Of a DNA stretch of 64,000 nucleotides, positions 13,231-50,946 are shown in pieces; positions within the stretch are counted from its first letter, which is position 1, and every line of letters begins with the position of its first letter. The DNA lies in IMG/VR virus record IMGVR_UViG_3300032086_003519, positions 23,213 through 87,212 of that record. One strand, 5' to 3'. The notes under the pieces are model-generated. The model made no database searches, had not been told where the DNA came from, and was given only the letters and a program-made list of their open reading frames with translations. The translations under genes and the position numbers were made by a program. The stretch comes from a virus.

Positions 13231-13454
13231 CTAACAACACCTTTCAGTTCAAGAAATTTATCAACTGCATCATCAATACTATAAAATAATTTACTGTACA
13301 TCTTCTTTTTATTATCCGAGTGTACTTGGTAAACTCCGTTAGCTCTTCCACGATACTGAGGCAGAAAGTGTCTCAAGTCGCAAAGACTAACATTTCTATA
13401 CTCAATAGCGCAACCAGAAAAAACAACAGACTTGTAATCTTCTTTAGTGCTCAT
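13227..13454 (-). CDS. small hypothetical protein between the dnaE halves
   Basis: overlaps both neighbours; weak AP2-like pattern. Confidence 0.6.
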   Translation of the reverse strand: MSTKEDYKSVVFSGCAIEYRNVSLCDLRHFLPQYRGRANGVYQVHSDNKKKMYSKLFYSIDDAVDKFLELKGVVR

Positions 13455-15024: not shown

Positions 15025-15514
15025 TACAGTCCTCAAATTTATTCAATTCTGAAATAGCAACATTATGACAATCTGCTCGAACTATAAAGCCATTAGATGG
15101 ATCTTTCTGGCCTTTTGTAAGTTTGCGAGCTTTCTTAAAGTAATCATCGTGAGTCAACCAACCTAAGACCCACGCCCTTCCCCATCTTCTATTTTTATTT
15201 TCAATTCTAACAAAAACATATCTATCACACTTCTGCTTTGTGTTAAAGTTAGCAACTGAACAATCATAGTAAGGTTTAGGTGGAGAAGTACACCGTTTTG
15301 TTTTTACGTCGTACTTGATTCCGTCCTGTGAAACCAAGTCGTAATCGTAGGTGTTATTAATTGTACCACCTATAACAACATTTGCAACCTCTTCTCCTAA
15401 AAACCCAGCAATATTTCCATCGCCCTTCATGATGGAGTTCTTGATGACTCCCATCTCTCTGGACTTTGCCCATGCTCGCTTCTTCATATCTTCTGTAATT
15501 TTTACTTCAATCAT
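14999..15514 (-). CDS. PD-(D/E)XK-type nuclease-like protein
   Basis: GFLGEE..YDYDL..YDVKT motif arrangement. Confidence 0.5.
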   Translation of the reverse strand: MIEVKITEDMKKRAWAKSREMGVIKNSIMKGDGNIAGFLGEEVANVVIGGTINNTYDYDLVSQDGIKYDVKTKRCTSPPKPYYDCSVANFNTKQKCDRYVFVRIENKNRRWGRAWVLGWLTHDDYFKKARKLTKGQKDPSNGFIVRADCHNVAISELNKFEDCNELDSAEQ

Positions 15515-27210: not shown

Positions 27211-28139
27211 GCTTCTACAATTCCTTTAAGCTGTTCCAGCAAAAATTCTTGATTTACACATTCCGGTATTTTATTGTCAGGGAAACAGGGTAATGTTTGT
27301 ATTTTTTTATATTCAATAGTATTATAACAAAGCTCAAGAACTTTTTCATGTAGATGTTCTAAATTTTCAAAGTTTCTGACATGTAGAAATGCTTCTTCGT
27401 TGAACTCTTCTGCAACATCTTTGCATCCCCAATAAATAGGTATTGATCCTACATACTTGGGATGAATTATTTTTTCTGTGATCCAGCCATCTGATTCTCC
27501 GTTATCAAAACAAAGATTAAACTTGAAATCAGATAGATATTCCAGCTTGTGTTTTTCATCTCCGCCAATCGACGGCATATTAGTAAATGCTCTCCCTCTA
27601 CTCTCTACAAGAAGTCCATTATCAATACCAAAGTTTATAAATTTAGGATACGCTTCTTTTCTGTAGCCCATATCATTGTTAGTTAATATAGAACAGAATT
27701 TACTCTTTTGTGAAACATTAACTTGATTCGTTAACTTTTTTGCTGACAAGAGAAACGCTTGATTTCTGCCCTCTACATAGCTTTCTTGCTGATCGCCAAA
27801 CCAGTTTACATACATAGCCCACAGAGGTATTCTGACATTTCTATCATCTTCAAATTTACAAGACGAAATAGAAAAGTCACACTTGCTATAGTCGGGATCT
27901 CCTGTTCTGTCTATGGATTCTACTAACCAATGAACTATCTTGGAGCTGGTAAATCCTGATGTAAACCTTTCGGGAGGTGGAGCTTGATGACTAGCCGGTG
28001 AAACCTGACAGATTACAATGTCTGGATTACTATCTGTTATTGTAACGTCGTACTCTTTTCTAAGAGTGTTTGTTATAATGTTGTCGTACTCAAAGAAGCC
28101 GCCCCACATATTATAAAATTTTAAAGATATGTTTTTCAT
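27207..28139 (-). CDS. GT10 alpha-1,3-fucosyltransferase-like
   Basis: FKFNLCFDN..GWITEKI....GSIPIYWG alpha3-FucT motif. Confidence 0.85.
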   Translation of the reverse strand: MKNISLKFYNMWGGFFEYDNIITNTLRKEYDVTITDSNPDIVICQVSPASHQAPPPERFTSGFTSSKIVHWLVESIDRTGDPDYSKCDFSISSCKFEDDRNVRIPLWAMYVNWFGDQQESYVEGRNQAFLLSAKKLTNQVNVSQKSKFCSILTNNDMGYRKEAYPKFINFGIDNGLLVESRGRAFTNMPSIGGDEKHKLEYLSDFKFNLCFDNGESDGWITEKIIHPKYVGSIPIYWGCKDVAEEFNEEAFLHVRNFENLEHLHEKVLELCYNTIEYKKIQTLPCFPDNKIPECVNQEFLLEQLKGIVEA

Positions 28140-28175
28140 TTGTACCTCATATAAATAGTCTAATACATTATAGAG

Positions 28176-28505
28176 CTACTTATCGAGTTGTACATCTATT
28201 TTCTTTAAATTTTCTGAGAATTGTTTTAGCGTGCTTACTGTTGTTTCTCTGGCAACTCTTTCTGCGGTCTCAGCGGCATAAGCTTGGACTTCTGTTGGGA
28301 GTTCATTAGAAAGCGCCTGAAGAAACGTCTCAAACTTCATGGCTGTATCAGTTTGTATTGTGTGACTATAAGAAGCACCTTCCTCTAAAATGTCTAATCT
28401 TTTGTCTAAATATCGGTTGTTATATTCAGCTCTAGCGCCTATAAAAATAACGGCAGCTAGAAAGATGCCTCTAAAAATACTTGACTGGTTCACCTTCATG
28501 TTCAT
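28176..28505 (-). CDS. membrane-anchored hypothetical protein
   Basis: N-terminal hydrophobic helix. Confidence 0.55.
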   Translation of the reverse strand: MNMKVNQSSIFRGIFLAAVIFIGARAEYNNRYLDKRLDILEEGASYSHTIQTDTAMKFETFLQALSNELPTEVQAYAAETAERVARETTVSTLKQFSENLKKIDVQLDK

Positions 28506-29181
28506 TCTCATCTTCTTCTTTATTGAGTGTCATTAATATTTTGGACACGATACCACTACGAACAATATCGCTATAATCCAGTTTGCAAACACCAACACCA
28601 GAAACTTCGGAAAGTTTATCCATACAAGTCTTAAGACCACCTTGATGTTTACCTAAGTCGGACTGTCTTAGATCTCCGTTTATCACAGCCTTAGAATCTT
28701 TTCCAATTCTAGTAATAAACATTTTGATTTGTTCAAACGTAGCGTTCTGCGCTTCGTCTAAGATCATAAAACAATTATGAAAGTTTCGCCCTCTCATATA
28801 TTCCAGTGGGCATAACTCAATAATATCTCTACTCCTATAAGTTTCTACCGTATTCTTTGTGAGATATTGGTTCATCTCTTCTAGAATAGGTATTAAATAA
28901 GGATTAATTTTTTCTACTAATGTGCCGGGCAAGTGACCCAAACCACGACCCGACTCTACAACAGGTCGAGTAATAATAATTTTGTCTACTTTCTTTTCGA
29001 TCAAGTATTCACACGCCATTCCGACAGAGACGCTAGTCTTTCCCGACCCAGCAGGCCCAGAGCAGAAAGTAACATCAGACCTGTTTATACTCTGCATGTA
29101 AGTTTCTTGATTGCGTGTTTTAGGCCGTAATATTTTTCTTCTCTGTCTTGTTGTCTTTGGTTTTTTTGCTTGTCTTGCCAT
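28471..29181 (-). CDS. phoH: PhoH-family ATPase
   Basis: GPAGSGKT, ITRPVVE, LGHLPG, YMRGRNF, LDEAQN, GDLRQSD. Confidence 0.95.
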   Translation of the reverse strand: MARQAKKPKTTRQRRKILRPKTRNQETYMQSINRSDVTFCSGPAGSGKTSVSVGMACEYLIEKKVDKIIITRPVVESGRGLGHLPGTLVEKINPYLIPILEEMNQYLTKNTVETYRSRDIIELCPLEYMRGRNFHNCFMILDEAQNATFEQIKMFITRIGKDSKAVINGDLRQSDLGKHQGGLKTCMDKLSEVSGVGVCKLDYSDIVRSGIVSKILMTLNKEEDENEHEGEPVKYF

Positions 29182-29477
29182 TAATTATTCTCTACTGTTA
29201 TAGTTTTAATTGCTGAATCCTGACACATTGGACATATCGGCTGAGAGCCGGGCTTATGTATACCAAGTTGGTGATGGGTCATAAGGATTGCTTGAATTAT
29301 CTGTGATTCTCTAAGCCTTGAATGTAAGGGTAATTCTCTGAGTTCTTTTTCTATGGGAATTTTAAGTTCTATTGCTGGCTCCTTATTCATTATATGTTTG
29401 AACATATAGAAAGAGCCCGCTAAATTCAGTAAAGATAGTGAAAAAAGTACATAAACTGCGTTCTTAAAAAATTTCAT
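29181..29477 (-). CDS. membrane-anchored small protein with HH..H..CxxC
   Basis: N-terminal TM; THHQLGIH, CPMC. Confidence 0.55.
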   Translation of the reverse strand: MKFFKNAVYVLFSLSLLNLAGSFYMFKHIMNKEPAIELKIPIEKELRELPLHSRLRESQIIQAILMTHHQLGIHKPGSQPICPMCQDSAIKTITVENN

Positions 29478-30688
29478 TAGAATAATTCTTTTATAATCTT
29501 ACCAGAGTTGGCAATCTTCATAGGTCTGCCGTTATTACTGGTAAATGTGGTTGTTAGTGAAATGTCAAGAGCTTTGCATACTGAAGCCATCACATCTTGA
29601 GAAGTGTAAGGTTCTGTATCAACGCGCGTGCCATCTGAATTAGTAGCACCGACAGCAATACCTCCATTCATTCCACCTCCACCAACGACAACGCTCCAAC
29701 TTCGTGCCCAATGGTCACGACCTGCGTTCTGGTTGATTCGAGGAGTTCTACTAAACTCTCCCATCCAAATAATTACTGTGTCTTGTAGAAGTTCTCTCTG
29801 TTCTAGATCTTCAAATAGCGCACTCATACCTTGATCTAACATAGGAAGTTTGTTATCTCTTAATGTAGCATGAATATTCTGATGATTGTCCCATCCGCCA
29901 AGATTAACCTCTATAAACGGCACACCAGCTTCTACTAGCCGTCTAGCCATCAGACAACCTTTACCAAAGTTGTTGTTGCCGTATCTTTCTTTTACATTTT
30001 CTGGTTCGCCTGCAACTTTCAAAGCATCCATCTGTGAGCTTGTCAGTACATTAAATGCTTCCTTTAGAACTGATTGATGTTCTTTTGCTAGTGAGCCTCG
30101 TCTTTGGTTTATAAAATTACTTTCAATTGCATCCAAAGCGTAAGCTCTCTGATAAAATCTCTGATCTACTTTTACATCTAGATTTCTAATTCTACCATCG
30201 CTATTCACGCTAAATGGAGCATATTTAGAACCAAGAAAACCGGCGCCTATACTTCCTCCACCCACAGAAATAAACTTGGGTATAGAAAGATCTGGTCTTG
30301 GCGACTGATGTGAGATTACTGAACCATAACTAGGATGATCTATGCTTGGGTTCGGAACATATCCAGTATGCATATAATAGCGACCACGCATATGGTCAGC
30401 TTCACGAGTACTCATACTTCTAATAATAGCAGCGTTATGCATCTGTTTTGCCATGAGAGGCATATGTTCACATATTTGCACATCTCCAGAGGTATTGATG
30501 GGACGGAAAGGGCCTCCTGTAGGCGCTCCGGGTTTTAAATCCCAGATGTCCATAGTTGAAGGGCCACCGCCCATCCATAGAAGAATGGCGGACTTCCCTT
30601 TCTTTTTAAGTTCATCTTCGTTAGCTTTAACAGTTTCCGCTAATGATAGCGCACTAAAAACCGATGTTAGAAAGGTACGTCTTTGCAT
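29477..30688 (-). CDS. DUF1501-family protein with Tat signal (paralog 1)
   Basis: MQRRTFL; WMGGGPSTMDIWDLKP, ARRLVEAGV, GGWDNH, GEFSRTP, GRDHW. Confidence 0.9.
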   Translation of the reverse strand: MQRRTFLTSVFSALSLAETVKANEDELKKKGKSAILLWMGGGPSTMDIWDLKPGAPTGGPFRPINTSGDVQICEHMPLMAKQMHNAAIIRSMSTREADHMRGRYYMHTGYVPNPSIDHPSYGSVISHQSPRPDLSIPKFISVGGGSIGAGFLGSKYAPFSVNSDGRIRNLDVKVDQRFYQRAYALDAIESNFINQRRGSLAKEHQSVLKEAFNVLTSSQMDALKVAGEPENVKERYGNNNFGKGCLMARRLVEAGVPFIEVNLGGWDNHQNIHATLRDNKLPMLDQGMSALFEDLEQRELLQDTVIIWMGEFSRTPRINQNAGRDHWARSWSVVVGGGGMNGGIAVGATNSDGTRVDTEPYTSQDVMASVCKALDISLTTTFTSNNGRPMKIANSGKIIKELF

Positions 30689-30699
30689 GTCTTCACCTC

Positions 30700-30888
30700 T
30701 TAAATTATAGCATGTTGATCTGAATCAGAGTTTTGAAACTTAGCATAATTTCTATGCCAATCATATTGATGATCTTGGTACGGTGTAGGCTCATCATTAT
30801 TATCATTGTAGGCATAACCGAAATCTTGCTTGAGTGAAGCAGAGCTTCCGCTACCTATGCCCATTGTTAATAAGTCTCCCATAAACAT
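30700..30888 (-). CDS. small hypothetical protein
   Basis: AAGGA RBS; fills gap before DUF1501 gene. Confidence 0.45.
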   Translation of the reverse strand: MFMGDLLTMGIGSGSSASLKQDFGYAYNDNNDEPTPYQDHQYDWHRNYAKFQNSDSDQHAII

Positions 30889-31027
30889 AATATTATTTCC
30901 TTGTTAAAGCTGGTAAATATTTCATTTTTAACTCCTTTAGTAAAGCTTGAGCGCCCGATAAATTCCTTTTTAGCGAACGCCCAAACTGATTCCGATGGCG
31001 CCTCTCGCCGTTGGGTCGAGATCGAAA

Positions 31028-31222
31028 TTAACTAATGCATTTGGGGCATTTACATACCTCTGCCTTACAAATGCAGTTTGTTTCTGGACACGGACACTCA
31101 TCTACACAAATTTCACAAATTGTTGGTTGGTCGCTATTAAACATCTCCTTTATCTCCTCTTTGTTAATTAAGCATAACGCTGCAACTATAATAATTGCTA
31201 CTAGCGGAAGTTTGATCTTCAT
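31028..31222 (-). CDS. signal-anchored Cys-rich (metallothionein-like) peptide
   Basis: strong RBS GAGGGGGTGATC; hydrophobic N-terminus; 10 Cys in the last 29 aa. Confidence 0.65.
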   Translation of the reverse strand: MKIKLPLVAIIIVAALCLINKEEIKEMFNSDQPTICEICVDECPCPETNCICKAEVCKCPKCIS

Positions 31223-31240
31223 ATGACGATCACCCCCTCT

Positions 31241-32539
31241 CTAAATAATAAGGTCTTGTCGAACTGTACCACCGTCCACAATTTCTATAGGACGATCTCC
31301 CGGAGCCATAAGCTCCTTATCGGAAACGATTCCGATTCTATTGTATATTGTTGCTGCCCAATCTTCTACTGTCATTGGGTTATCTTCTGGTTCACTCGCT
31401 GTAGCATTAGAGCTACCATAAACCATTCCGTTTTTAATACCGCCTCCAGCCATAACTACACTGAAAACCTTTGGCCAGTGGTCACGACCAGCGGTAGCAT
31501 TAATCTTTGGTGTACGACCAAACTCGGAAGCCAAACAAACCAGCGTGGAGTCAAGCATACCTCTATCACTAAGATCTTCAATAAGGGCCGCAAGTCCTTG
31601 ATCTAGTGCTGGCACTTGTCCACGAATACCATTTTCTATATTGTCGTGCATATCCCATCCACCATAGGTGAGTGTGACGAAGCGAGTTCCAGCTTCTACT
31701 AAACGGCGAGCTAATAACATGCGAGCGCCAGCAGTATTTCTGCCATACTTGTCTCGCATCGCATCGCTTTCTTTGTTAATATCAAAAGCATCTCTGGCTT
31801 TTTCACTGCTAATCAAACTATAAGCACGATCATAAAAGCTATCTACGGCATCCAGAGAGTCTGACTTTTCTTTGGTAGCAAAGTAATCGTTGACTGCACT
31901 AAGCATTTTTCTTCTTGTTCCAAACCTATTATCATTCACACTGTCGGGCAGTCTGAGATCTCGAACCTGAAATCCATCACTAGCAGGGTCTGAACCTAAG
32001 CTGAAACCTGAGAATGAGCTACTTAAATATCCAGTACCTGCATATTCATTAGGTTGGTTTGGGATGCAGACGTATGGAGGAAGGTTTTGACGAGGCCCAA
32101 ACTCATGTGCCACCACTGAACCCATTGATGGGTATTGAAGGGCTGGGCTAGGTCTATAGCCAGTAAACATATTATGTGTGCCTCGTTCATGAGCTGCTTC
32201 TCCATGTGTCATACTGCGAATAATCGTCATCTTGTCTGTAACTTTGGACGTTTTGACCATCATCTCATTTAATCTAGTTCCGGGAACTACGGTTTCAATG
32301 CTAGACATTGGCCCCCTGTATTCAAGAGGAGCAAAAGGTTTAGGATCAAATGTCTCTTGATGAGCTGAACCTCCCGGCAAATAGATATAAATAACAGACT
32401 TTGCTGGCCCCTCAATGCTTTCATAAAACTTCTGGTCAGCTTGAGCTTGCTCCATGCGGAAATAATCCGATAGACTCAAACCCAAGCCACCCAAAAAACC
32501 AACTTGCAGAAAAGATCTGCGATTACTTTTGCAATTCAT
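31241..32539 (-). CDS. DUF1501-family protein with Tat signal (paralog 2)
   Basis: start MNCKSNRRSFLQVG (AAGGA RBS); YLPGGSAHQETFDPKP, ARRLVEAG, GGWDMH, SEFGRTP, GRDHW. Confidence 0.9.
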   Translation of the reverse strand: MNCKSNRRSFLQVGFLGGLGLSLSDYFRMEQAQADQKFYESIEGPAKSVIYIYLPGGSAHQETFDPKPFAPLEYRGPMSSIETVVPGTRLNEMMVKTSKVTDKMTIIRSMTHGEAAHERGTHNMFTGYRPSPALQYPSMGSVVAHEFGPRQNLPPYVCIPNQPNEYAGTGYLSSSFSGFSLGSDPASDGFQVRDLRLPDSVNDNRFGTRRKMLSAVNDYFATKEKSDSLDAVDSFYDRAYSLISSEKARDAFDINKESDAMRDKYGRNTAGARMLLARRLVEAGTRFVTLTYGGWDMHDNIENGIRGQVPALDQGLAALIEDLSDRGMLDSTLVCLASEFGRTPKINATAGRDHWPKVFSVVMAGGGIKNGMVYGSSNATASEPEDNPMTVEDWAATIYNRIGIVSDKELMAPGDRPIEIVDGGTVRQDLII

Positions 32540-32549
32540 AAAATTTCCT

Positions 32550-33461
32550 TTACCACATTCTGCAAGACCAGTACCGAGCTTTCCATTTTGGGCCCGGAGC
32601 TGTATCACATTTGTGTCTTGCTCTAAAACTTCTTCTTCTTTCAGGGTTATCCCTTTTAATTTCCATATTAGGATCGCCAAATCTAACAATAACAACTTTA
32701 CCAGATCCATTCTTAGTATAAACTGCAAATTTCTTTGGCCCATCAGGGGTTCTAAAAGGCTTATTTAAAGTGACTTTTCTACCTTGATATTCTGCCGCTT
32801 TGGACTTTCTTGGATGTCCTTTTGGAAGAAGGTCATTATCCTGCGTGTATCCAGAATTAGAAGGTTTACCAGTTCTGAGTAATGTCAAAAAGGCATTTAC
32901 TCTAGCCATAGCCCATCCATCTCTAGACATTTTTGGCGCATGACTTGTTGAGTAGGCTCCAGCCCCTCTACGATACACAGCTTTAAGCATACCAAGAGTT
33001 GCTTTTGATCCTTTGCCTTTAGCATTATGCTCTTTCACTTTCTTAGACAGTCTTTCGGTGGTCTTTTTACTAAAAGTGATTTTACCACTTGGGTTCTTTG
33101 CACTATCAGGCTTGTTTCTTTTTGAGCCTCTCTTCTGATCTTTTTTTGGTGCGGGAGTTCTACGGGGATCTCTAGGGCCCGGTTTGTCAGACTGAGCTTT
33201 CTTAAGCTCCTCTTGACTAGGACGACCTTCTTTTTCAGTGCGAGCAGGACGGTAGCTATCTCCTTCTCTCTGCTTTTTCCTCCTAATATTTTCCCAAAGT
33301 CCGGGCTTAGCTTGTGAAACATCCCATTCTTCAGTATCTTCACCAAAATCTACATACTCAGCTTCAGCAGGAATATAAAAGTTTTCCTCTGTAAGATCTT
33401 CTGTATATCCAGTTTCATTTAAGTACTCATTAAATGCGCTTGCGTAATCTTCTTTTTTCAT
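32550..33461 (-). CDS. acidic-then-basic modular phage protein
   Basis: modules PGLWENIRRK; LKAVYRRGAGAY..WAMARVNAFL; FGDPNM..SFRARHKC..ARYWSC. Confidence 0.6.
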   Translation of the reverse strand: MKKEDYASAFNEYLNETGYTEDLTEENFYIPAEAEYVDFGEDTEEWDVSQAKPGLWENIRRKKQREGDSYRPARTEKEGRPSQEELKKAQSDKPGPRDPRRTPAPKKDQKRGSKRNKPDSAKNPSGKITFSKKTTERLSKKVKEHNAKGKGSKATLGMLKAVYRRGAGAYSTSHAPKMSRDGWAMARVNAFLTLLRTGKPSNSGYTQDNDLLPKGHPRKSKAAEYQGRKVTLNKPFRTPDGPKKFAVYTKNGSGKVVIVRFGDPNMEIKRDNPERRRSFRARHKCDTAPGPKWKARYWSCRMW

Positions 33462-34717
33462 TATAATATTACCTTTCCTTCACCTTCTAGCAGGTATCTT
33501 GGTCTGCCAGAGTTATCAACTCTCTGTGTGCCTTTATCTATTCCAAAATGATCAAATAGGGTTGCCTGTAAATCCAAAGGCCCAACAGGTCTTTCTGTAG
33601 GACTGTAAGATCTATCAGCCTCTCCGATGGTTCTTCCTGCTGCATACTCTCCACCGAACATAAACATCGGCGTGATTGATGGCCAGTGGTCACGACCGGC
33701 ATTTGCATTAATTTTAGTTCTTCCAAATTCGCCAGTTACTACCAATAATACTTTATCACCTAAACCTCTATCGGACACATCCTGTATAAAGCCTGCAATA
33801 GCTTTATCGACAGGAGGCACTCTTGTCTTTAGGGCATTTGATACATTGCTATGCATGTCCCATCCGCCATAATGAAGCGTAACAAATCTTGTTCCGTATT
33901 CTACAAGACGACGAGCAAGAAGAAGTTGTTCACCAATATCTTTTGCTTTAGTTGACCCATAGAGAGCTTTTGTTTTTTCATTCTCTTTTTCTACTGCAAA
34001 TGCGTCTTTTGCAGATCCTAATATTACATCGTATGCTTGCCCCTTGTAAAAGTCTACTGAGTTGGCGCTTCTGCTTGCGACTGCGGCGGCATCAAGTCCT
34101 TTGAGCAGGTCTTTTCTTGTAGAGAATCTATCAAGTTCGACTCTTGGGGTAAGGTTGTCTTTATTGGATGGATCGAAAGGTTTATATGCTCCACCGAGCC
34201 AAGCACCTTCATCACCTTCGATTTTACCTTGCTTAACATATGTTGGTACTCCATTTTCTTGGTTGTTAGCTCCATAACATGCAGATACAATAGATCCGAA
34301 TGAGGGGTACTTTGCCATAGAAGTGGTGGTTCTTTCTGGATTATACTGTCCGGTCATCATAAAATGAGTCCCTTGTCTATGAGAGGAATCTCTGTGACTA
34401 AAGGAATTTACCACATTCATTTTGCCGGTATGTTTAGCTAGTTCTGTCCAGTCAGCACCTAAATTTATGTTCGTTTTAACATCATAAATAGAACCGTTTA
34501 CTGCTTGCCATTCGGTAGGCACAGTGTCTGTAGGAGCGTGAAATGTTTCAAACTGTGTTGGCCCTCCTCCAAGCCATAACCAAACAACTGCCTTATCTTC
34601 ATATGCATCAAAACCTTCTTGAGAAAACGCTTTGTCGGAAAGTCCGATAGAACTCATAGCTGCGCTGATGCCACCTACCCTTAAAAAGTTTCTTCGATTG
34701 AAAATAAAGTCTAACAT
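33461..34717 (-). CDS. DUF1501-family protein with Tat signal (paralog 3)
   Basis: FNRRNFLRVG; WLGGGPTQFETF, ARRLVEYG, GGWDMH, GEFGRT, GRDHW. Confidence 0.9.
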   Translation of the reverse strand: MLDFIFNRRNFLRVGGISAAMSSIGLSDKAFSQEGFDAYEDKAVVWLWLGGGPTQFETFHAPTDTVPTEWQAVNGSIYDVKTNINLGADWTELAKHTGKMNVVNSFSHRDSSHRQGTHFMMTGQYNPERTTTSMAKYPSFGSIVSACYGANNQENGVPTYVKQGKIEGDEGAWLGGAYKPFDPSNKDNLTPRVELDRFSTRKDLLKGLDAAAVASRSANSVDFYKGQAYDVILGSAKDAFAVEKENEKTKALYGSTKAKDIGEQLLLARRLVEYGTRFVTLHYGGWDMHSNVSNALKTRVPPVDKAIAGFIQDVSDRGLGDKVLLVVTGEFGRTKINANAGRDHWPSITPMFMFGGEYAAGRTIGEADRSYSPTERPVGPLDLQATLFDHFGIDKGTQRVDNSGRPRYLLEGEGKVIL

Positions 34718-34727
34718 TTTGGTCTCC

Positions 34728-35753
34728 TTAATAAGTTGTTGATTGTGTTTTTGTGACTATTGATCCATTTGTGTATGGCATGTAGTCATTGTTGTCATTT
34801 GTATAAGAGAAAGACATTTCTACATTGCCTCCTCCTGTATCTCCACCCGAAAATCCAACGCCTGTACAATAATTCTTTGACCCCAAATCAAAAATTATAT
34901 TATCAAATTTCAGGACTATTTGCCGATCAGGAGTTGGAAATGTGCCCATAAAAATATTGTTGTTGTCTGATATTAGTATATCTTGTTGGACTGACTTTCT
35001 AGCTATTGCGCTGATTTCACAAGTAACTTCAACAGGCGTTTCTACGTACTTATATTTGTTTTGCTCGCTTGGATTGGTGCCCTGATTTGAACCTCTCCAA
35101 AAACCCGTATCGGCAAGTTCAGAGTAGCTGACCGAAAGACTAATTCCTATTGATTGTATAACCCTAACTTTTATATTATCATCTACTGTTAGTATGGCTG
35201 CGTCAACCTCAGTTGGAAATATACTGTTTTCTGTGTCGAAGTTTTGCTTTCTCATAAGAGTTCCAGACTCTCCAAGAGCCGGAATAGAACCGGCAGACTG
35301 CTTCGTCAGGTTATTGGTAACGAGGGTAATACTTTCAGTAAATATACCATCAACAGAGAAGTTATACGAAATCTCTGTAACCAAACAATATTCAAACTTT
35401 ACTGAATCGACAGAACCACTTATGGTCGTATCATCACCATAAGTCAAACCAATTTCATATTCTTTTAATCCAGTCCAGCCAGCTATACCTAGATTGGAAT
35501 TTTTTAGAAGATAAGAGTCTTCATAATTGCCAGTTCCTATAGTATAGAAAGGCGTATCACCAGATCTTAGATGTCGTTCTATTGTTATTGTCACTTCTGG
35601 CTTGTTGTATCTATCTCCAAAAGCCTGAGATCTTCCGGTATCAAGTATAGCTTCAGCGTCAGCGCTATAGTCAACGCCAACGCTTTGGACGTTCTTTAAG
35701 TACGTGCCATCAACGAAGACCGCCTGACACGCATAAAAAACTCTGTTACCCAT
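34728..35753 (-). CDS. putative virion structural protein (tail-tube-like)
   Basis: NRVFYACQAV..VQSVG N-terminus; beta-rich, S/T/G-rich; GGDTGGGN near C-terminus. Confidence 0.5.
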   Translation of the reverse strand: MGNRVFYACQAVFVDGTYLKNVQSVGVDYSADAEAILDTGRSQAFGDRYNKPEVTITIERHLRSGDTPFYTIGTGNYEDSYLLKNSNLGIAGWTGLKEYEIGLTYGDDTTISGSVDSVKFEYCLVTEISYNFSVDGIFTESITLVTNNLTKQSAGSIPALGESGTLMRKQNFDTENSIFPTEVDAAILTVDDNIKVRVIQSIGISLSVSYSELADTGFWRGSNQGTNPSEQNKYKYVETPVEVTCEISAIARKSVQQDILISDNNNIFMGTFPTPDRQIVLKFDNIIFDLGSKNYCTGVGFSGGDTGGGNVEMSFSYTNDNNDYMPYTNGSIVTKTQSTTY

Positions 35754-35767
35754 AGTAAGTACCTTTA

Positions 35768-36784
35768 TTAAAAGTCGTCAACTAAATTTCCTACAGAATA
35801 CTCAGTGACTCTAGTCTCGAAAAAGTTCTTGCATTTTTCCAGATCAATGATCTCGCTCATCCAAGGAAATGGGTTCTGTGCATTTCCATAAGGTGATGGT
35901 AAATTTAAATTGGTTAATCTTCTGTCAGCAATAAACTGAACATAATCAATAAACATATCTGCGTTTAATCCTAAGATACCATTTGGTAGAACATCTCTAG
36001 CATATGCTAACTCTAGCTCCATAGCTGTATCAATATGCTCGATGGTTTCTTTTTCCATTGCTTTTGTCCAGATCTTAGGATTGTCTTCTCTCAATCTATT
36101 AATAAGAGTTGTCCCAAAGTTGATGTGGATACTCTCATCACGAAGTGTGTATTGAATTTGCTCTCCAATTCCCGGCAGTTTGTTTTGCCTATTAAATGAA
36201 AGGAGCATAGCAAAGCCAGAGAAGAAGAAAATCCCTTCACAGATAACATAATAAGTAATAATATTACGAAGGAATTCCCTTTTCCCCTCCAGCGTATTTA
36301 TATTAAAATCAGGGCGATTGATGTCAGTTGTAATGTTCATCAAGAACTCGTCTTTGGCCTTGATACTCGGAATTGAATTATATGCCTGATAAACTTCATC
36401 AATATCTAAGTTCAAAGAGTCACAAACATAAACCACAGTAAGGTTGTGGAGGCTTTCCTCATATGCTTGACGCAGAATATATTGGCGACATTCTGGATCT
36501 GTTACAAACTTGAATACACTGAGAAGCAAGTTATTGGCAACCAAAGATTCTGATCCAGCAAAGAACCCTAAGCATCTCTTCACAACTAATCTTTCATCTT
36601 CGGATAGAGAGTTAGATTTCCACTGTTCAATGTCTTTTGCCATAGAGACCTCTGTAGGCATCCAATTGTTAGCGGCTCCGTCGATGAATAAATCCCATGC
36701 CCATTTGTTTGTATGCGGCAAGATTTGATTCACAGTGGCTACTTTATCTGATATAATTTCTTTGCTTTTTTTCATTATTGACAA
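35768..36784 (-). CDS. nrdB: ribonucleotide reductase class Ia beta subunit
   Basis: NNWMPTEV, YEESLH, EGIFFFSGF, RDESIH, NFFETRVTEY. Confidence 0.95.
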   Translation of the reverse strand: MSIMKKSKEIISDKVATVNQILPHTNKWAWDLFIDGAANNWMPTEVSMAKDIEQWKSNSLSEDERLVVKRCLGFFAGSESLVANNLLLSVFKFVTDPECRQYILRQAYEESLHNLTVVYVCDSLNLDIDEVYQAYNSIPSIKAKDEFLMNITTDINRPDFNINTLEGKREFLRNIITYYVICEGIFFFSGFAMLLSFNRQNKLPGIGEQIQYTLRDESIHINFGTTLINRLREDNPKIWTKAMEKETIEHIDTAMELELAYARDVLPNGILGLNADMFIDYVQFIADRRLTNLNLPSPYGNAQNPFPWMSEIIDLEKCKNFFETRVTEYSVGNLVDDF

Positions 36785-39225
36785 CTCTCACATCCGGGAT
36801 CTAAAATAGAACATGCCTTAATTTCTTCTGCTTGTGGCTCTTCGGTTGACTTAAAACTAACAGTTGATTTCTCAACGCGAGTGGCGGCTTTGCCTCTCAA
36901 GTAATATGTAGTTTTTAATCCGTTTTCCCAAGCACAAAAATATAAGTCATTCAAAAACTTAAGACTGTCATGTTTGTTGTAAAGATTAAGCGATTGTCCC
37001 ATATCAATCCACTTCTGTCTTTCAGCCGCAGCCTTAATTAAAATTTCTGGTTCAATATCAAAAGCAGTAATAAACTCTCTCTGAATATCTTCATCCAGAT
37101 CAACCGCCATAACGTCTCCGTCAGCAGTTTTTAGAGCATCTACTAGCTCTTGACACCAAATACCCTTCTTCTTAGCCATTGCAACAAAATGTTCATTGAC
37201 CATAGTAAACTCTCCACTAAGTGTTGAGTACACATAAAGAACCGAGTAATCTGGCTCAATAGACTGCGAACAACCCTGAATATATGAGATGGTTGCGGTA
37301 GGAGCGATTGCCATGACATTACTATTACGCATACCATGTTTTCTCACTAATTCCCTAACCTCATCCCATTCTTCTACAAAGTTCTCGAAGTCCTCTTTCT
37401 TATACACATTATCTGACCTGTGAGTCTCTCTCTGATTCATTAAATCACAATAAGTATCTATAGGAAAATTACCTTTATCCCATTCGGAACCCTCAAAAGA
37501 GGGGTATGCGCCTTTTTCCTTAGCTAATAATGCTGACGTTTTGATCGCATGTAAAGAAATAAATTCTTGTATTTTCCCGCACAGTATGACTGCATCTTGA
37601 GAATTATACGGTATTCCTAGCTTGTGTAACACATCATGAGTACCCATAATACCAAGCCCTACAGGTCTGTGTTTCAGGTTTGACTTTTTGGCTTCTTTTG
37701 TAGGGTAGAAGTTTAGATTTACAACATTGTCTAAGCCTCTAACTGCCACCTCTACGGTTTTCTGTAGCTTTTTCCAATCAATAGTTCTAACTTTTAAGTG
37801 CGATGATAGATTGATACTGGCGAGATTACAGACTGCTGTTTCACCTACCTCGACAATTTCACCTTCTTCATAAACTGTAGGTTTGGTGTGCAGTAAAATC
37901 TCAGTACACAGATTAGAAGAATGGACTACACCCTCATGTTTATTAGAATATCTTATATTAGATGGGTCTTTAAAGGTGATCCAAGGATGTCCAGTTTCAT
38001 AAAGCGCAGTAAGAACTTTCTTCCAAAGGTCTTTAGCATTAATAGTTCTATAATTATTTATTTCTCCATTGTCTGCGGCTTTCTTATATTTTCTATAAAC
38101 CTTAGTAAACTCTTTGCCGTAGGTATCGTGTAACTCTGGACATTCTGCTGGATCAAACAAATACCAATCTTGGTTTTTTGTGACAGCTACCATAAAGTCA
38201 TCTGGAATCCATAAGGCAGTATTCATGTCGTGACAACGACGGCGATCATCTCCAGTATTTTTTCTAAGGTCTAAGAAGTCTTCAATGTCTAAATGCCAAG
38301 GTTCAATATAAGAACATCCAGCACCTTTTCTTTTTCCTCCTTGATTGACCGCCACTAATAAGTCATTGAATATTTTTAACCAAGGAACAAGGCCTGTAGA
38401 CTTTCCATTTGTGCCTTTTATGTAGCCGCCTGTAGCTCTTACGCTAGACCAATCAACACCAAGCCCTCCAGCATATTTCGACAATCTAGACTGTCCATGT
38501 AACGTACCAAAGATGCCATCAATTGAATCTCCCACTGTACTCAAATAGCAAGAAGAAAGCTGAGACCGTTTTGTCCCACTGTTAAACAGTGTAGGAGTAG
38601 ATGGAGAATATCTAAACTCTGACATCATATTATATATTTCGAGAGCCTTCTCTTCTTTATTATCCCCCTCTGCAAGACATAGACCCATAGCTACTCGCAT
38701 ATAAAATGCTTGAGGGGTTTCCATTCTCTGTTCATTTAGGTGGATAAAATAGCGATCATAGAGGGTTTGGATGCCCAAGTATTTGAATAGTTTGTCCCTT
38801 GATGGAACCATATTCTCAGCTAGGTAATCAAGATCATAAGAAAGGAGTCTATCACTGAGCCTCTCTTCTTTTACTAACCTTTTGATGTTTTTCACAAAAG
38901 CTTTTTTGTACTGCTCTTCAAAATTTTCACTACCTACGTCTTCGCCAAACACCTCTTTATAAAGATTGTTAAGTAGCATCCTCGCAGCTACATAAGCATA
39001 GTTTGGTTCTTTTTCTATCTTAGAGCGAGCAGATAATATCAGCGCCTTGTTTATTTCTGATGTTGGTATCTTATTGTAGAGTTGCAAACTAGCATCAAGA
39101 ACTACTTCGCTCACAGAAACATCTTCAAGTTCATTACAAGCCCTTTCAACGCACTCATTTATCTTGTCTAAACAAACATCTTCTAGTCTACCGTTGCGTT
39201 TTTTAATTTTTATATCTTGGCTCAT
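36775..39225 (-). CDS. nrdA: ribonucleotide reductase class Ia alpha subunit with ATP cone
   Basis: IKKRNG ATP cone, PSTPTLFNSG, QLSSC, SNLCTEI, CNLASINL, APTATIS, KTTYYLR, C-terminal CxxC. Confidence 0.96.
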   Translation of the reverse strand: MSQDIKIKKRNGRLEDVCLDKINECVERACNELEDVSVSEVVLDASLQLYNKIPTSEINKALILSARSKIEKEPNYAYVAARMLLNNLYKEVFGEDVGSENFEEQYKKAFVKNIKRLVKEERLSDRLLSYDLDYLAENMVPSRDKLFKYLGIQTLYDRYFIHLNEQRMETPQAFYMRVAMGLCLAEGDNKEEKALEIYNMMSEFRYSPSTPTLFNSGTKRSQLSSCYLSTVGDSIDGIFGTLHGQSRLSKYAGGLGVDWSSVRATGGYIKGTNGKSTGLVPWLKIFNDLLVAVNQGGKRKGAGCSYIEPWHLDIEDFLDLRKNTGDDRRRCHDMNTALWIPDDFMVAVTKNQDWYLFDPAECPELHDTYGKEFTKVYRKYKKAADNGEINNYRTINAKDLWKKVLTALYETGHPWITFKDPSNIRYSNKHEGVVHSSNLCTEILLHTKPTVYEEGEIVEVGETAVCNLASINLSSHLKVRTIDWKKLQKTVEVAVRGLDNVVNLNFYPTKEAKKSNLKHRPVGLGIMGTHDVLHKLGIPYNSQDAVILCGKIQEFISLHAIKTSALLAKEKGAYPSFEGSEWDKGNFPIDTYCDLMNQRETHRSDNVYKKEDFENFVEEWDEVRELVRKHGMRNSNVMAIAPTATISYIQGCSQSIEPDYSVLYVYSTLSGEFTMVNEHFVAMAKKKGIWCQELVDALKTADGDVMAVDLDEDIQREFITAFDIEPEILIKAAAERQKWIDMGQSLNLYNKHDSLKFLNDLYFCAWENGLKTTYYLRGKAATRVEKSTVSFKSTEEPQAEEIKACSILDPGCESCQ

Positions 39226-39261
39226 AAGTCTCACTGGAATCAAAGGTTAGTGTAAGTGTAT

Positions 39262-39394
39262 AAAAAAAACGACACTTATAACATACAGAGATAGGAACTT
39301 GTCTACTCTAAGTTTATCCCTGTGCCTTTCGGCTTGTCGGGGTAAGTGTCGTTTAGCCTGTTTTCCAAAACTGGCTTTTTATTCCCCAACGACT
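39262..39394 (-). ncRNA. structured nrdA 5' leader (candidate attenuator/riboswitch or stand-alone sRNA)
   Basis: 12-bp closing stem running into a U8 tract, GAAA-capped hairpin, G-U pairs favouring the minus strand, 5' segment complementary to the closing stem. Confidence 0.55.
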
Positions 39395-39399
39395 GTTAA

Positions 39400-39428
39400 A
39401 TTATAGTGTTCGTTGAGCGGATTTGCAA
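39400..39428 (-). promoter_or_regulatory. sigma-70-type promoter for the nrdAB leader
   Basis: TTGCAA-N17-TATAAT. Confidence 0.75.
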
Positions 39429-39442
39429 GATCTAATTAATGA

Positions 39443-39646
39443 CTAACCGCCAAAAAATGATCTTTTTTCGTCGTCACCATCTTCGTCTTCCGAGACTGGC
39501 TCTGGAGCCGGAGCTGGTGCTGGTACTGGGTCTTTTTTAACACCCAAAGCTTCCGCCATAGCGGTAAATACTTCAACAAGCTGTTCATGGTTCTGAGTGC
39601 CAAGAATAACCTTATCTAACATATCTTTGATTACAACTTTGTCCAT
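39443..39646 (-). CDS. hypothetical protein with (PA)n linker
   Basis: AGGAG RBS; PVPAPAPAPEP. Confidence 0.6.
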   Translation of the reverse strand: MDKVVIKDMLDKVILGTQNHEQLVEVFTAMAEALGVKKDPVPAPAPAPEPVSEDEDGDDEKRSFFGG

Positions 39647-43759: not shown

Positions 43760-44800
43760 CTATTCTAAGCCTTTTATGAATTTTTTAGCCGAGTTCTCCC
43801 AAGAAAACTCTTTAGCGGTGTAAATACCGTCAATATTTGTTTCCAGATTTCCTTCTTGTTTTAACGTGTGTATCGCTCTCATGTAGGTAACAACTTGTTC
43901 TAGCTGGTTACTACCCAAAGAAGCCCATGAGCCTTGACCATGAAACCAAACTCCATCTTGAGCCGGTTCAAGATTGTCTATCGAAACCAAGTGACAATTC
44001 TTTGCATTGCAAAACTCCGTGTGTGCTGAATATTCGGTAGCTATAACATGTTTGCCACACGCCATCATTTCTAAAAGTTCCAGATTCCAGCCTTCAGCTC
44101 TAGCAGGAAAAACTCCACAATCAGCTTGTTTCATAACATTGTAAACATCTCTGTGTGTGTTCTGTCTCGGTATAATCCTGATCTTATCACCAAGAGGAGA
44201 TTCTTTATAAAGTTTTTCCCATTGTGATTGTTGCTCAGGTGAGTAGAAGGGATTGCTACACATCATCCACAATTCAACTTCATCCGAGTGGTCAAATGCG
44301 GCGTTAAAACAATTCACTAGTATATCATGACCCTTTCTGACTTCCCATTTTCCGCAGTTGAAGAATACCGTTTTTGGTCTAGTAGAATCGTGAGGTTTGA
44401 AAATTTGCGTATCTACACCAAGAGGCACCACTTTAGTTTCAACTCCGGTTTGTTGTTCTACTATTTCTTTTGCCCATTTTGAGCAGGTGAAAATTCTGTC
44501 ATTATATTTTATGCTTTGTTTTTCCAGCTCGTTAAATCTTTCAAGCTCGAATATAGGAAAACCAACGTGCATACCTTTTCCGACGTGTCCATGTAATTCA
44601 TGTTGATGCCATATTTTGACAGAAGGATTCTTTTCATGACATTCTTGCATGGTGATCTTTTGTATAAACGGATCTGACATCTCCGGTTTGCCAATCGGAA
44701 GATAGTTTACCTGATTGCCCTGCGACAATAAATTCTTAATTATATTATAACTTGCGATGCCATATCCGAGATTGTTTATAGGCGCTGTAATATTAATCAT
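43760..44800 (-). CDS. GT4 glycosyltransferase
   Basis: GKWEVRKGHDIL, PARAEGWNLELLEMMACG. Confidence 0.9.
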   Translation of the reverse strand: MINITAPINNLGYGIASYNIIKNLLSQGNQVNYLPIGKPEMSDPFIQKITMQECHEKNPSVKIWHQHELHGHVGKGMHVGFPIFELERFNELEKQSIKYNDRIFTCSKWAKEIVEQQTGVETKVVPLGVDTQIFKPHDSTRPKTVFFNCGKWEVRKGHDILVNCFNAAFDHSDEVELWMMCSNPFYSPEQQSQWEKLYKESPLGDKIRIIPRQNTHRDVYNVMKQADCGVFPARAEGWNLELLEMMACGKHVIATEYSAHTEFCNAKNCHLVSIDNLEPAQDGVWFHGQGSWASLGSNQLEQVVTYMRAIHTLKQEGNLETNIDGIYTAKEFSWENSAKKFIKGLE

Positions 44801-47231
44801 TTTGACCTCTAGCTATTTTGTAATAATGATAAACATTTCCAAGATCAACCTTAGAACTATCAAAAATGTCGTTATCTAAAACATTTAGGAAATCTTTGTG
44901 TAGTTTATTGTTTTCCATCCATACGGCATGGTCTTCAAAGACTTCGCGCTTCCAAGTTCCCCAGTCTGTTATAATTGAAAAATTCATCTTGTCTACACCG
45001 TCTAATGAATTAGCCAACTCAACACATGCAGGCATCTCTTTATAGTTGTTCTTTTGTACTACTGAGTCAATCCTAAGTATGTTAATTTTACCTTCAACTC
45101 TCAATCTTGACAACATTTCTATGTTCTTCATCAGCAAGTCCCAATCGCCACCTATACGTATCTTATCATAAGTTTCTTTAGTGGCAGCGTCGATAGACAC
45201 AATTACCTGATTGATATTGTCATGGCACTTGTGTAGCATGTTCCACATTTTTTCAGTAAGCATGACTCCGTTTGTTTGTAGGTTTATCATTATTTCTGGG
45301 TGCTGTTTCCCATCAAAATTTATCAAGAAGTCCCTGAAAACTTTTGAGCCGAACGGATCGCCAGAGCCAGTGATGTTTAGCGAAGTATGACCTTTTGGTT
45401 GCTCGTTTAGAACAAAATCCATTATCTTGTTTTGTATCGCAACAGCATCATCATATTTCTTTCCCGAAGTATGAAGTATCGAACTTATCCTACAGCTAGG
45501 ACATTTTAGATTGCAAGAATCGTCCCACAAAAAGTTGACATGTTTAATTCTATCCATGTCAGTAATATTGTTTTCTATTATATGCTTATGTCTTTCTTGT
45601 GTGACATCTTCTCTTTTAGGCAGCGCATCAACATTTTGTAATCTCGGACATGTCTTTTTGTTGCAGTAACTGAATGAACCGTCTAAAATCGAAGCTCTAA
45701 TATTTTTTGCTTTATCAGAATTGAGTATCTCTGTTATTGATGACTCGTGTATATTCCCGATGCTTTCATCCATCCAGTAGGAACAGCAGGTTCTAACATT
45801 CCCATGCTCATCAACTTCAAAATTATCGAAGGGTTGTTCGCAGAAAAGCGCTGAAGTGTCTACGATTGGAAGAGAACTATTATCAGCATCTTCGTATATG
45901 TCACTTATTTTAGTTTTTTTTTGATCGTTGAATGGGTCATAGGTCTCAAAGTCAACCCATTCCTCTCCATTCCATATGATATTTAGCCTGTCGGTTATGA
46001 CAACATCAGTCCCGTACATTGTTTTAATGAAATTAGAATCTATGAAGCGCAGTTTGCCATCATAGAAAACTTCTTTGTATCCATACTTTTCAAGGTTATC
46101 ATCTAGTTGTGATATATCTACATCATTTAAAAGGTTAAATAACCCGCCCAAGTTAACATGCATCATTTCTGAATTATGCACTAGATGCGCTCTAACATGT
46201 TTATTCAATTCAGGGTCAAAAACAATATCAAGCAACTCTTGGTGTCTTGGGTGTTTCTTCTCTTGAACTGCTCGGTAAAACCAAGTCTCAAAGAAATCTG
46301 GTGAACCTATCAGGAAGTCAGGCTCATAGGTTTGAAACTGAACACATTTCACATCATACTTTTTACAAAGATCGACAAACTGTAACACTTCAGAAAGATT
46401 ATCATTCTGCACAACAAAACTTGTATTGAAAGTTACTATCTGACCAGTAGCCTGAAGGTGCTGTGCGAATTCCAAATTTTCTAAAAGCATATTCCAATCG
46501 CCACCTTTTCTGACAACCTTATATGTTTCTTCGGTTGCGGCATCAATTGATATAGAAATGTGCTTTATCTTTTCTTTTGAATAGTCACTTAGAGAGTCCC
46601 AATACTTCTTCATCAGAAGCCCATTTGTCAATATTTGAATTGTCTCTAGATTTGGAGCGTCTTCTTCTTTCAGTGTGCGGAGGAGGTCTCTGAATACAGG
46701 ACTAGCAAAAGCATCTCCAGAGCCTGTAATACAAAAAGATTTTGCATTATGGAAGGCTTCTTTCTTTAACTTGTCTTGTATATTTAGAATCTGCTCGCGC
46801 TTTTTGCCAGACTCCATAATTAGCTCTAGCCTACAAGATGGACATTCAAGATTACACGATCTATCATATCCAAAGTTTATGTCTAACGGCGTATGATCTA
46901 GTTTTGTTTTACCCTCAACAATGTCGTCATGTATAAGATCCCAGCCTCTGTGACTATTAGTGTTTCCTATCTGATAAAGAGTCTGAACGCAGTGAGTCTT
47001 CGTTTCTAAGTGCGGACATACTTCTCTGTTGCAATACCTGTAGGAGCCATCAAGAATTGATCTTCTCAGCTCTTGAGCCTCTTCACTGTTCCATACTTCT
47101 TCTACTGACTTGTCTTTTATATTGCCAATTTCATAATTATTAATCCAAGACGGACAGCAACAACTAACTCTACCGTCGTCGTACACTTCAAAAAATTCAA
47201 AAGGTCTTGTGCAATAATGTTTTTCATTCAT
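44793..47231 (-). CDS. radical SAM protein, tandem duplication of SPASM/twitch + radical SAM units
   Basis: CNLECPSC and CNLKCPSC; two ITGSGD(A/P)F; two SIDAAT.ETY; two C..PF..FEV...G.V..CC starts. Confidence 0.85.
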   Translation of the reverse strand: MNEKHYCTRPFEFFEVYDDGRVSCCCPSWINNYEIGNIKDKSVEEVWNSEEAQELRRSILDGSYRYCNREVCPHLETKTHCVQTLYQIGNTNSHRGWDLIHDDIVEGKTKLDHTPLDINFGYDRSCNLECPSCRLELIMESGKKREQILNIQDKLKKEAFHNAKSFCITGSGDAFASPVFRDLLRTLKEEDAPNLETIQILTNGLLMKKYWDSLSDYSKEKIKHISISIDAATEETYKVVRKGGDWNMLLENLEFAQHLQATGQIVTFNTSFVVQNDNLSEVLQFVDLCKKYDVKCVQFQTYEPDFLIGSPDFFETWFYRAVQEKKHPRHQELLDIVFDPELNKHVRAHLVHNSEMMHVNLGGLFNLLNDVDISQLDDNLEKYGYKEVFYDGKLRFIDSNFIKTMYGTDVVITDRLNIIWNGEEWVDFETYDPFNDQKKTKISDIYEDADNSSLPIVDTSALFCEQPFDNFEVDEHGNVRTCCSYWMDESIGNIHESSITEILNSDKAKNIRASILDGSFSYCNKKTCPRLQNVDALPKREDVTQERHKHIIENNITDMDRIKHVNFLWDDSCNLKCPSCRISSILHTSGKKYDDAVAIQNKIMDFVLNEQPKGHTSLNITGSGDPFGSKVFRDFLINFDGKQHPEIMINLQTNGVMLTEKMWNMLHKCHDNINQVIVSIDAATKETYDKIRIGGDWDLLMKNIEMLSRLRVEGKINILRIDSVVQKNNYKEMPACVELANSLDGVDKMNFSIITDWGTWKREVFEDHAVWMENNKLHKDFLNVLDNDIFDSSKVDLGNVYHYYKIARGQND

Positions 47232-50601: not shown

Positions 50602-50605
50602 AAAG

Positions 50606-50946
50606 TGGAGGTGGCGGGATTTGAACCCGCGTGCCACATAATATTATTATTAACTTCTACATGTTTAGTATAATTATTATCGTCCATCATACTAGACTAT
50701 CCAAGTTATCGGAGTCAAACAAATTATTGTTATCATATATATTTAGTTCAAGTATATAAACTCTAGCAAAATTATCTGCGTCATCACTATTTGGTTTGCG
50801 GGGCTGTGATACCCGTGCCGCTAGGCGGCGAGTGCGAAATTCTCTTCTACACTTAAAAAAAATGAGAACGATTTTTTAAGTAGCCACTCGTTCAACTACT
50901 ACATGCAATCAATAACTTTATTACTGGTCGATCCCAATTCACCCCC
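50606..50946 (-). ncRNA. ssrA: tmRNA; tag reading frame 50850-50821 = (A)VEENFALAA*
   Basis: 5' GGGGGTGAATTGGGATCGAC; 3' GCGGGTTCAAATCCCGCCACCTCCA; G3-U70 alanine identity pair; tag ends LAA-stop. Confidence 0.93.

Follow-up and report, generated by a model that had tools for sequence, protein, structure and literature searches.

The window analyzed here is a stretch of 64,000 nucleotides (bases 23213–87212 of the 87,212-base IMG/VR virus record IMGVR_UViG_3300032086_003519) in which all long open reading frames (ORFs) lie on the minus strand, and the subject of this study is a cassette of genes within it that encode proteins of the DUF1501 family (Pfam PF07394). A first-pass annotation, made from the sequence, had reported three full-length, divergent DUF1501 genes that are co-oriented between nrdB and phoH. 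This description holds, with the addition that a tail-tube-like gene also lies between nrdB and the first of the three. P1 (29477–30688, minus strand, 403 amino acids, 344 bits), P2 (31241–32539 within an ORF open to 32743, minus strand, 432 amino acids counted from MNCKSNRRSFL, 380 bits) and P3 (33461–34717, minus strand, 418 amino acids, 229 bits) all match the Pfam profile from end to end (from profile positions 1–2 to 386–390 of 390; gathering score, 27 bits). Their pairwise identities are 29–36%, with 36% between P1 and P2. The order of transcription is nrdB, the tail-tube-like gene, P3, a gene for a 303-residue protein (o303), P2, s64, s62, P1, s98, and phoH.

Each of the three proteins starts with a twin-arginine leader, as had been noted before (MQRRTFL in P1, NRRSFL in P2, and NRRNFL in P3), and in each case the RRTFL, RRSFL, or RRNFL sequence is followed by a hydrophobic stretch. 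The pattern RRxF[LM] is present in 284 of the 293 family members collected, all phage copies included. The GG, GGWDxH, EFGRT, and GRDHW motifs are found in P1, P2, and P3, and a fourth phage copy, P4 (described below), retains every family-invariant residue, as do P1 and P2; these residues, in the numbering of P2, are T83, R108, H117, R279, W295, D296, H298, D313, E339, F340, R342, T343, G351, R352, D353, and H354. The earlier statement that the motifs are intact must be qualified for P3, which has Asp at position 83 and Asn at position 108 (T83D and R108N) and keeps the other invariant residues. The sequence CxPxR is absent from P1, P2, and P3. In the literature searched, the family has been treated in genomic work only, namely in a study in which its genes form modules with PSCyt/PSD1 genes (PMC3542564) and in one on a stress-induced gene pair that is described below (PMC2754498), neither of which deals with phages.

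The check by structure prediction that the first-pass annotation had proposed was carried out on P2 alone. An AlphaFold2 model based on an alignment of 55 sequences (mean predicted local distance difference test score, 88.8) was placed by an exhaustive structural search in the alkaline phosphatase superfamily, with Z scores of 19.8 to ENPP6 and PafA and of about 18 to S1 sulfatases, at a sequence identity of 9–16% over about 245–270 residues; Foldseek matched the same model to sulfatases with a probability of 1.00. When solved structures were searched by sequence with the family profile, the sole match was one of 35 residues to an S1_8 sulfatase and LtaS, and hence no DUF1501 structure seems to have been solved. 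In a profile alignment with sulfatases of the host (probability 72%, E = 3.5e-5), His117, with which the helix after strand 104–111 begins, falls on the formylglycine Cys of CxPSR, a Gly-Gly pair on the Asp-Asp ligands, and EFGRT on the sulfatase SDNG/GDHG. DUF1501 therefore has the core fold of S1 sulfatases and of enzymes of the nucleotide pyrophosphatase/phosphodiesterase (NPP) and PafA type, and the strand and helix before GDHG/SDNG align with GEFGRT. By contrast, the C/S-x-P-x-R signature is missing, Gly-Gly stands in place of the first-strand Asp ligands, the sulfatase alignment and the secondary structure of the model put His at the nucleophile position, and there are extra invariant motifs, GGWDxH and GRDHW. 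The family thus appears to possess a redrawn active centre that is neither that of a canonical sulfatase nor that of an NPP, and because of the absent signature, the absent Asp ligands, and the His at the nucleophile position, its chemistry would be unlike that of any characterized member of the superfamily.

The phage copies do not descend from one another. In a scan of one genome per prokaryote species, relatives of P1 at 57–77% identity were found only in Pirellulales/Planctomycetota, with 62–77% in Pirellulaceae genomes, and those of Gemmataceae and Isosphaeraceae were 48% identical. The P1 orthogroup occurs in 70 of 81 sampled genomes of the order Pirellulales, nearly always as a single copy. 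Among these 81 genomes, P1 is closest (80%) to a gene of the marine Pirellulaceae metagenome-assembled genome (MAG) "Rhodopirellula sp. NAT69" (G001), the next genome standing at 70%. P2 is 86% identical to a different gene of the same MAG (G001:C48), with the next best matches at 74–78% (78% in G002), and its orthogroup is single-copy in 25 of 41 sampled genomes. P4 comes from a near-identical contig (L005), in which 1683 bp carrying P4 (a DUF1501 protein of 427 amino acids) and a 127-residue ORF (L005:8097–9779) replace 118 bp of the window (30910–31027), between flanks that are 96–98% identical by blastn; it is 57–68% identical to members of a third host orthogroup. The best cellular matches of P3 reach only 41–43%, and its best 120 database matches (57–88%) all come from phage-type contigs. 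Each of these host genomes contains from 60 to more than 150 DUF1501 genes.

In a maximum-likelihood tree of 88 representatives, the phage clade of P1 (support 100) is sister to the NAT69 gene (97) and nested in a Pirellulaceae clade, the P2 of the window is sister to the P2 orthologue of the same MAG (97), the P4 clade is sister to a gene of another host genome (G005; 98), and P3 belongs to a clade of phage sequences only (99), which has a long stem. Phage P1, P2, and P4 evolve no faster in this tree than their host orthologues. The tree requires at least six changes of the phage label, and constraining all phage copies to a single clade lowers the log-likelihood by 1142 units (p = 3e-64, approximately unbiased test). 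Since neither result is compatible with a single origin, the phage DUF1501 copies are independent captures from different host orthogroups, which settles the question of capture or duplication that the first-pass annotation had put to a tree. A single capture followed by duplication and divergence inside the phage would readily account for genes that are clustered, co-oriented, and similar in length. It is nevertheless hardly credible for these three, because each belongs to a different host orthogroup with tree support, because P1 and P2 are much closer to host genes (77–86%) than to each other (36%), and because of the rejection of a single phage clade. A second P1-type phage clade, placed elsewhere in the tree, is formed by IMG/VR contigs of 180–240 kb (L074–L083), each with one P1-type DUF1501 gene of 64% identity that groups with other Pirellulales genes; it looks like another capture, made by larger phages.

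The cassette is not a chimera of phage and host DNA, which the first-pass annotation had named as one of two grounds for refutation. The G+C content at third codon positions (GC3) of P1, P2, and P3 (0.29–0.33) equals that of the phage genes for NrdA, PhoH, and the tube protein (0.31–0.32) and is far from that of the host orthologues (0.48–0.70). P2 and its closest host gene, that of the NAT69 MAG, are 86.5% identical in protein sequence and only 72.9% identical in DNA sequence, and synonymous sites between the phage genes and this genome are saturated, so that the synonymous distance is not computable. The survey of IMG/VR that had been suggested found 470 contigs encoding relatives. The order NrdA-NrdB-tube-P3-(o303)-P2-s64-(P4)-P1-s98-PhoH is repeated in dozens of the 80 contigs compared, on contigs of up to 167 kb. 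All sampled words of an 8.3-kb stretch of the locus are present in 14 DNA runs from seven studies, and in two runs the whole stretch lies in single contigs with no differences. Inside each phage clade the ratio of nonsynonymous to synonymous substitution rates (dN/dS) is 0.03–0.05. The cassette has therefore been resident in the phage for a long time, under purifying selection. One could still suppose that host DNA was misassembled into a viral contig, or that a cellular island or prophage was taken for a lytic phage, given that P2 is so similar to a host protein and that the G+C content rises slightly over the cassette (0.40–0.43 against 0.386 for the window). We give this next to no credence, in view of the phage-like GC3, the low DNA identity and saturated synonymous sites, the identical gene order across viral contigs, the undivided contigs from independent runs, and the fact that the cassette genes abut and overlap phage genes. 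As host-derived phage auxiliary genes, they combine a cellular origin, a bona fide phage genome, and purifying selection. In addition, run X10, which is filed under a single organism name, contains a 17.5-kb contig with the whole 8.3-kb stretch and no difference, and may represent a culture or enrichment that holds both the phage and its host.

P3 has a history of its own. It represents an old, phage-only lineage in which two family-invariant residues were changed stepwise inside the phage lineage: positions 83 and 108 are T/R in the cellular and the basal phage relatives, T/N in three contigs, N/N in one, D/D in three, and D/N in the main clade, and His117, D296, H298, E339, D353, and H354 are kept in all relatives of P3. 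R108 would thus have been the first to go, before Asp took the place of T83. The dN/dS of this lineage is 0.043, and for this reason the substitutions look like a change of function rather than decay; the specificity of the enzyme has probably been altered. The closest cellular relatives of P3 (L181) are isolated, with no PSCyt/PSD1 gene beside them.

The relatives of the other copies have conserved neighbourhoods in the host. Directly upstream of the P1 orthologue is a PSCyt2-PSD1 (DUF1549-DUF1553) gene encoding about 570 amino acids, and downstream there are genes for an extracytoplasmic function (ECF) sigma factor and then for a second, larger PSCyt2/PSD1 protein. Cognate PSCyt2-PSD1 proteins of the host are encoded at L085:4195–5919 and L179:2037–4493. 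In two host loci (L085:7388–10060 and L093:7204–10248), the PSCyt2/PSD1 protein encoded with the ECF sigma factor after the P1-type gene has a long N-terminal extension, and the layout resembles that of a sigma/anti-sigma pair. In Rhodopirellula baltica, heat, cold, and salt stress all induce an ECF/PSD1-PSC2 pair (PMC2754498), which may or may not be the locus of the P1 orthologue. The P2 orthologue heads a series consisting of DUF1501, a PPC-domain protein, a Big_2/PSCyt2/PSD1 protein, and a further large gene, which corresponds to the "most complex four-gene cluster" of Kamneva et al. 2012 (PMC3542564), and one P4 orthologue precedes a Big_2/PSCyt2/PSD1 gene.

None of these partners accompanies the phage genes. 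The first-pass annotation had found no DUF1549 or DUF1553 gene in the window, and neither of these domains, nor DUF1800, occurs anywhere in the 87-kb record. The host partner genes gave no tblastn match in 1.29 Mb of related viral loci, and no partner lies within 10 kb of the cassette in more complete relatives of 120–167 kb. TatC, a component of the twin-arginine translocation (Tat) system, is encoded by the host genomes but is absent from the phage record.

The planctomycete host proposed before is supported by these data and can be narrowed down further. The phage encodes a transfer-messenger RNA (tmRNA; 50605–50946, minus strand), an AT-rich relative of Pirellulaceae tmRNAs, whose nine-residue tag, VEENFALAA, is like the tags of four Pirellulaceae genomes (AEENLSLAA, AEDNLALAA, ADENLALAA, and AENNLAMAA) in both length and pattern. 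Because P1 and P2 both point to one MAG lineage, and the tmRNA tag points to the same family independently, the host is likely an open-ocean member of the Pirellulaceae, with the Rhodopirellula sp. NAT69 MAG as the closest sampled genome. Phages of this group have left few traces in the literature: a search by phrase for phages of Planctomycetes found no paper, the only mention of phages in a 2025 review of Planctomycetes concerns genes on a plasmid, and planctomycete infections are termed previously unrecorded in a Hi-C study of 2026.

A feasible model is that the cassette supplies host-derived DUF1501 catalytic subunits, exported by the host Tat system, that act together with the PSCyt2/PSD1 partners of the host; we put the probability of this reading at roughly 0.55. 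A large marine tailed phage, most likely infecting open-ocean Pirellulaceae, would on separate occasions have taken up the DUF1501 genes of different conserved PSCyt2/PSD1-DUF1501 modules of its host, leaving the partners behind. Since the phage copies keep their twin-arginine leaders, they would be folded, and probably loaded with metal, in the cytoplasm during infection and then sent to the periplasm via the host Tat system, where they would most likely join the host PSCyt2/PSD1 proteins and top up or replace the catalytic subunit. The putative active centre would be composed of the His at the nucleophile position together with the Asp and His of GGWDxH, the Glu of EFGRT, and the Asp and His of GRDHW. 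P3 would be an older capture, in which the two changes of invariant residues made within the phage lineage probably altered the specificity. The replacement of the host D1 protein by the product of cyanophage psbA serves as a model for such an exchange of subunits. Metatranscriptome contigs from one study match sections of the three DUF1501 genes, phoH, nrdB, and the tube gene at 95–99% identity. They give a hint that the cassette is transcribed.

Several points weigh against this model. Export by the Tat system, association with host partners, and a benefit to the phage are all steps that we infer: export is judged from the leader motif, and the roles of "catalytic subunit" and of a protein that docks to host partners are read from gene order. 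At least one copy, P3, may work alone, because its closest cellular relatives are not found beside PSCyt/PSD1 genes. The record is only about 57% complete (CheckV), and a partner gene could sit in the missing part. The likely host has been assigned by gene similarity and the tmRNA tag, not by a physical link, and carry-over of DNA could account for the metatranscriptome contigs.

The first-pass annotation had offered two functions, of which the hijacking of host DUF1501-DUF1553 complexes fits the evidence better, although it is still something that we infer, than the scavenging of phosphate or sulfate, for which the adjacency of phoH had been adduced. No conclusion can be drawn from that adjacency, since phoH is common among phages and abuts the cassette here by chance of order. 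A case for scavenging can be made on other grounds. Each DUF1501 protein might be a self-sufficient periplasmic phosphatase, phosphodiesterase, or sulfatase that frees phosphate or sulfate for the replication of the phage, in the manner of cyanophage phoA and pstS; such a role would suit an alkaline-phosphatase-superfamily fold with Z scores of 18–20 to NPP-type phosphodiesterases, PafA, and S1 sulfatases, the conserved metal-type Asp/His motifs, the isolated nearest cellular relatives of P3, and a habitat in the oligotrophic open ocean. It is unlikely all the same, in light of the redrawn active centre, with its His at the nucleophile position and without the C/SxPxR signature or the first-strand Asp ligands, and of the orthologues of P1 and P2, whose near-universal, single-copy occurrence in fixed positions beside PSCyt2/PSD1 argues for a complex.

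A different role would be manipulation of the host, in which the phage copies, P3 and P1 above all, would be decoys or competitors on host partners, so that an envelope-stress signal is blunted or triggered, or a periplasmic or surface structure is masked against superinfection. The ECF sigma factor and the subsequent PSCyt2/PSD1 protein in the operon of the P1 orthologue would be consistent with it, as would the stress-induced pair of R. baltica, if the two loci were the same, and the stepwise loss of two invariant residues in P3 under strong purifying selection. However, P1, P2, and P4 keep all family-invariant residues and evolve no faster than the host orthologues, as working enzymes would, and no evidence ties DUF1501 to sigma-factor signalling; both the decoy role and its supposed effects on the cell are therefore rather improbable. 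Only slightly less doubtful is a broader version, in which the cassette would rewire a periplasmic system of planctomycetes, with a neofunctionalized P3 that competes for or re-targets PSCyt2/PSD1, a P1 that taps the ECF-linked module, and a contribution of s98 to the control of envelope signalling or uptake. We thus retain the supply of catalytic subunits to host complexes as the preferred reading.

The first-pass annotation did not know of such genes as a phage module, and its second ground for refutation, prior documentation of DUF1501 as a common phage gene, likewise fails in the literature searched: no relevant paper was found on DUF1501 and phages, the literature on DUF1553, DUF1549, PSCyt2, and PF07394 contained no functional study, and a tblastn search of deposited phage genomes (INPHARED) with P2 gave one weak partial match only, in a 6.9-kb faecal contig. 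The nearest known systems are the PSCyt1/PSCyt2/PSD1 and DUF1501 modules of Planctomycetes, Verrucomicrobia, and Lentisphaerae (PMC3542564), to three of which the orthologues of P1, P2, and P4 belong (57–86% identity). These three phage proteins have the Tat leader, the invariant residues, and the fold in common with these modules. By contrast, the phage has the DUF1501 gene only, without a PSCyt/PSD1, PPC, or ECF partner, its copies have been recoded to the phage composition, and P1 and P2 are followed by small proteins, membrane-bound or rich in Cys, that are specific to phages. Similarly, the cassette can be compared with psbA, pstS, and phoA of cyanophages, which are also captured host genes under purifying selection that stay close to the host protein sequence and that encode either a single exchangeable component of a host machine or a nutrient protein of the periplasm. 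Unlike these, it contains three to four members derived from different host loci, belongs to a family with no named function, and concerns a host phylum for which phages have not been described in the literature searched. New in the present analysis are the stepwise change of T83 and R108 in P3, the indel that carries P4 between near-identical phages, the host clue from the tmRNA tag, the His at the sulfatase nucleophile position, and the wide, single-copy occurrence of the captured P1 and P2 orthogroups in the order.

Few unexplained gene systems of Planctomycetes are as large as that of DUF1501 and the PSCyt/PSD1 proteins. From this multitude, the phages have selected a few conserved single-copy members and separated them from their partners, a choice that marks the copies of greatest importance to the infected cell. 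The cassette is a minimal set for expression, assay, and partner-binding tests, and also a strong host marker, tying a widespread clade of large marine phages, with the 470 IMG/VR contigs mentioned above, to the Pirellulaceae.

The cassette is flanked by NrdB (35768–36784, minus strand) and by a PhoH-like ATPase (28471–29181, minus strand; PF02562, 236 bits). The tail-tube-like protein between NrdB and P3 (34728–35753, minus strand) has a feature score of 0.97 and template modelling scores of 0.72–0.81 to the structure clusters of Phage_tube_2 and the Phi812 tail tube. The description of the interleaved genes as small, exported, Cys/His-rich proteins fits two of them. The s98 protein (98 amino acids; 29181–29477, minus strand), whose reading frame overlaps the P1 stop at its start and the phoH start at its stop, contains an N-terminal membrane helix together with the conserved motif ILMxHHxxGxHxPGxQxxCPxC. 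It follows P1 in 49 loci, and its relatives form 77 clusters, all from phage-type contigs; it has no Pfam match, and there are no cellular names among these clusters. The s64 protein (64 amino acids; 31028–31222, minus strand), encoded just downstream of P2, combines an N-terminal hydrophobic signal or anchor with about ten conserved Cys residues. One may speculate that s98 and s64 are phage-made accessories, for instance for metal handling or anchoring. The description does not apply to s62 (62 amino acids, acidic; 30700–30888, minus strand), which lies upstream of P1, has no signal sequence, and has relatives in the nearest related contig only, or to o303 (32550–33461, minus strand), a basic phage protein (DUF5824/DUF5754, phrog_7595) that is probably no part of the DUF1501 function, since its position differs among related phages. 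NCBIfam contained no family for any of the nine proteins tried. A scan of 28000–39600 for promoters and terminators gave no convincing signal within the cassette, and its terminator count equalled that of shuffled sequences.

The remainder of the record encodes phage hallmark proteins, namely rIIA (together with rIIB-like matches), a UvsX-like recombinase, a DnaB-type helicase, a primase, and a split DNA polymerase, in addition to NrdA, NrdB, and PhoH. The label "T4-like" was considered on account of rIIA/rIIB and UvsX and was dropped, as the polymerase is a split gene that matches phrog_405: its two ORFs (10998–12578 and 13444–15036, minus strand) correspond to consecutive parts of the phrog_405 profile, with other genes between them. 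Finally, a phage protein of 812 amino acids (44793–47231, minus strand) has a C-terminal half that is radical-SAM-like (phrog_21308).

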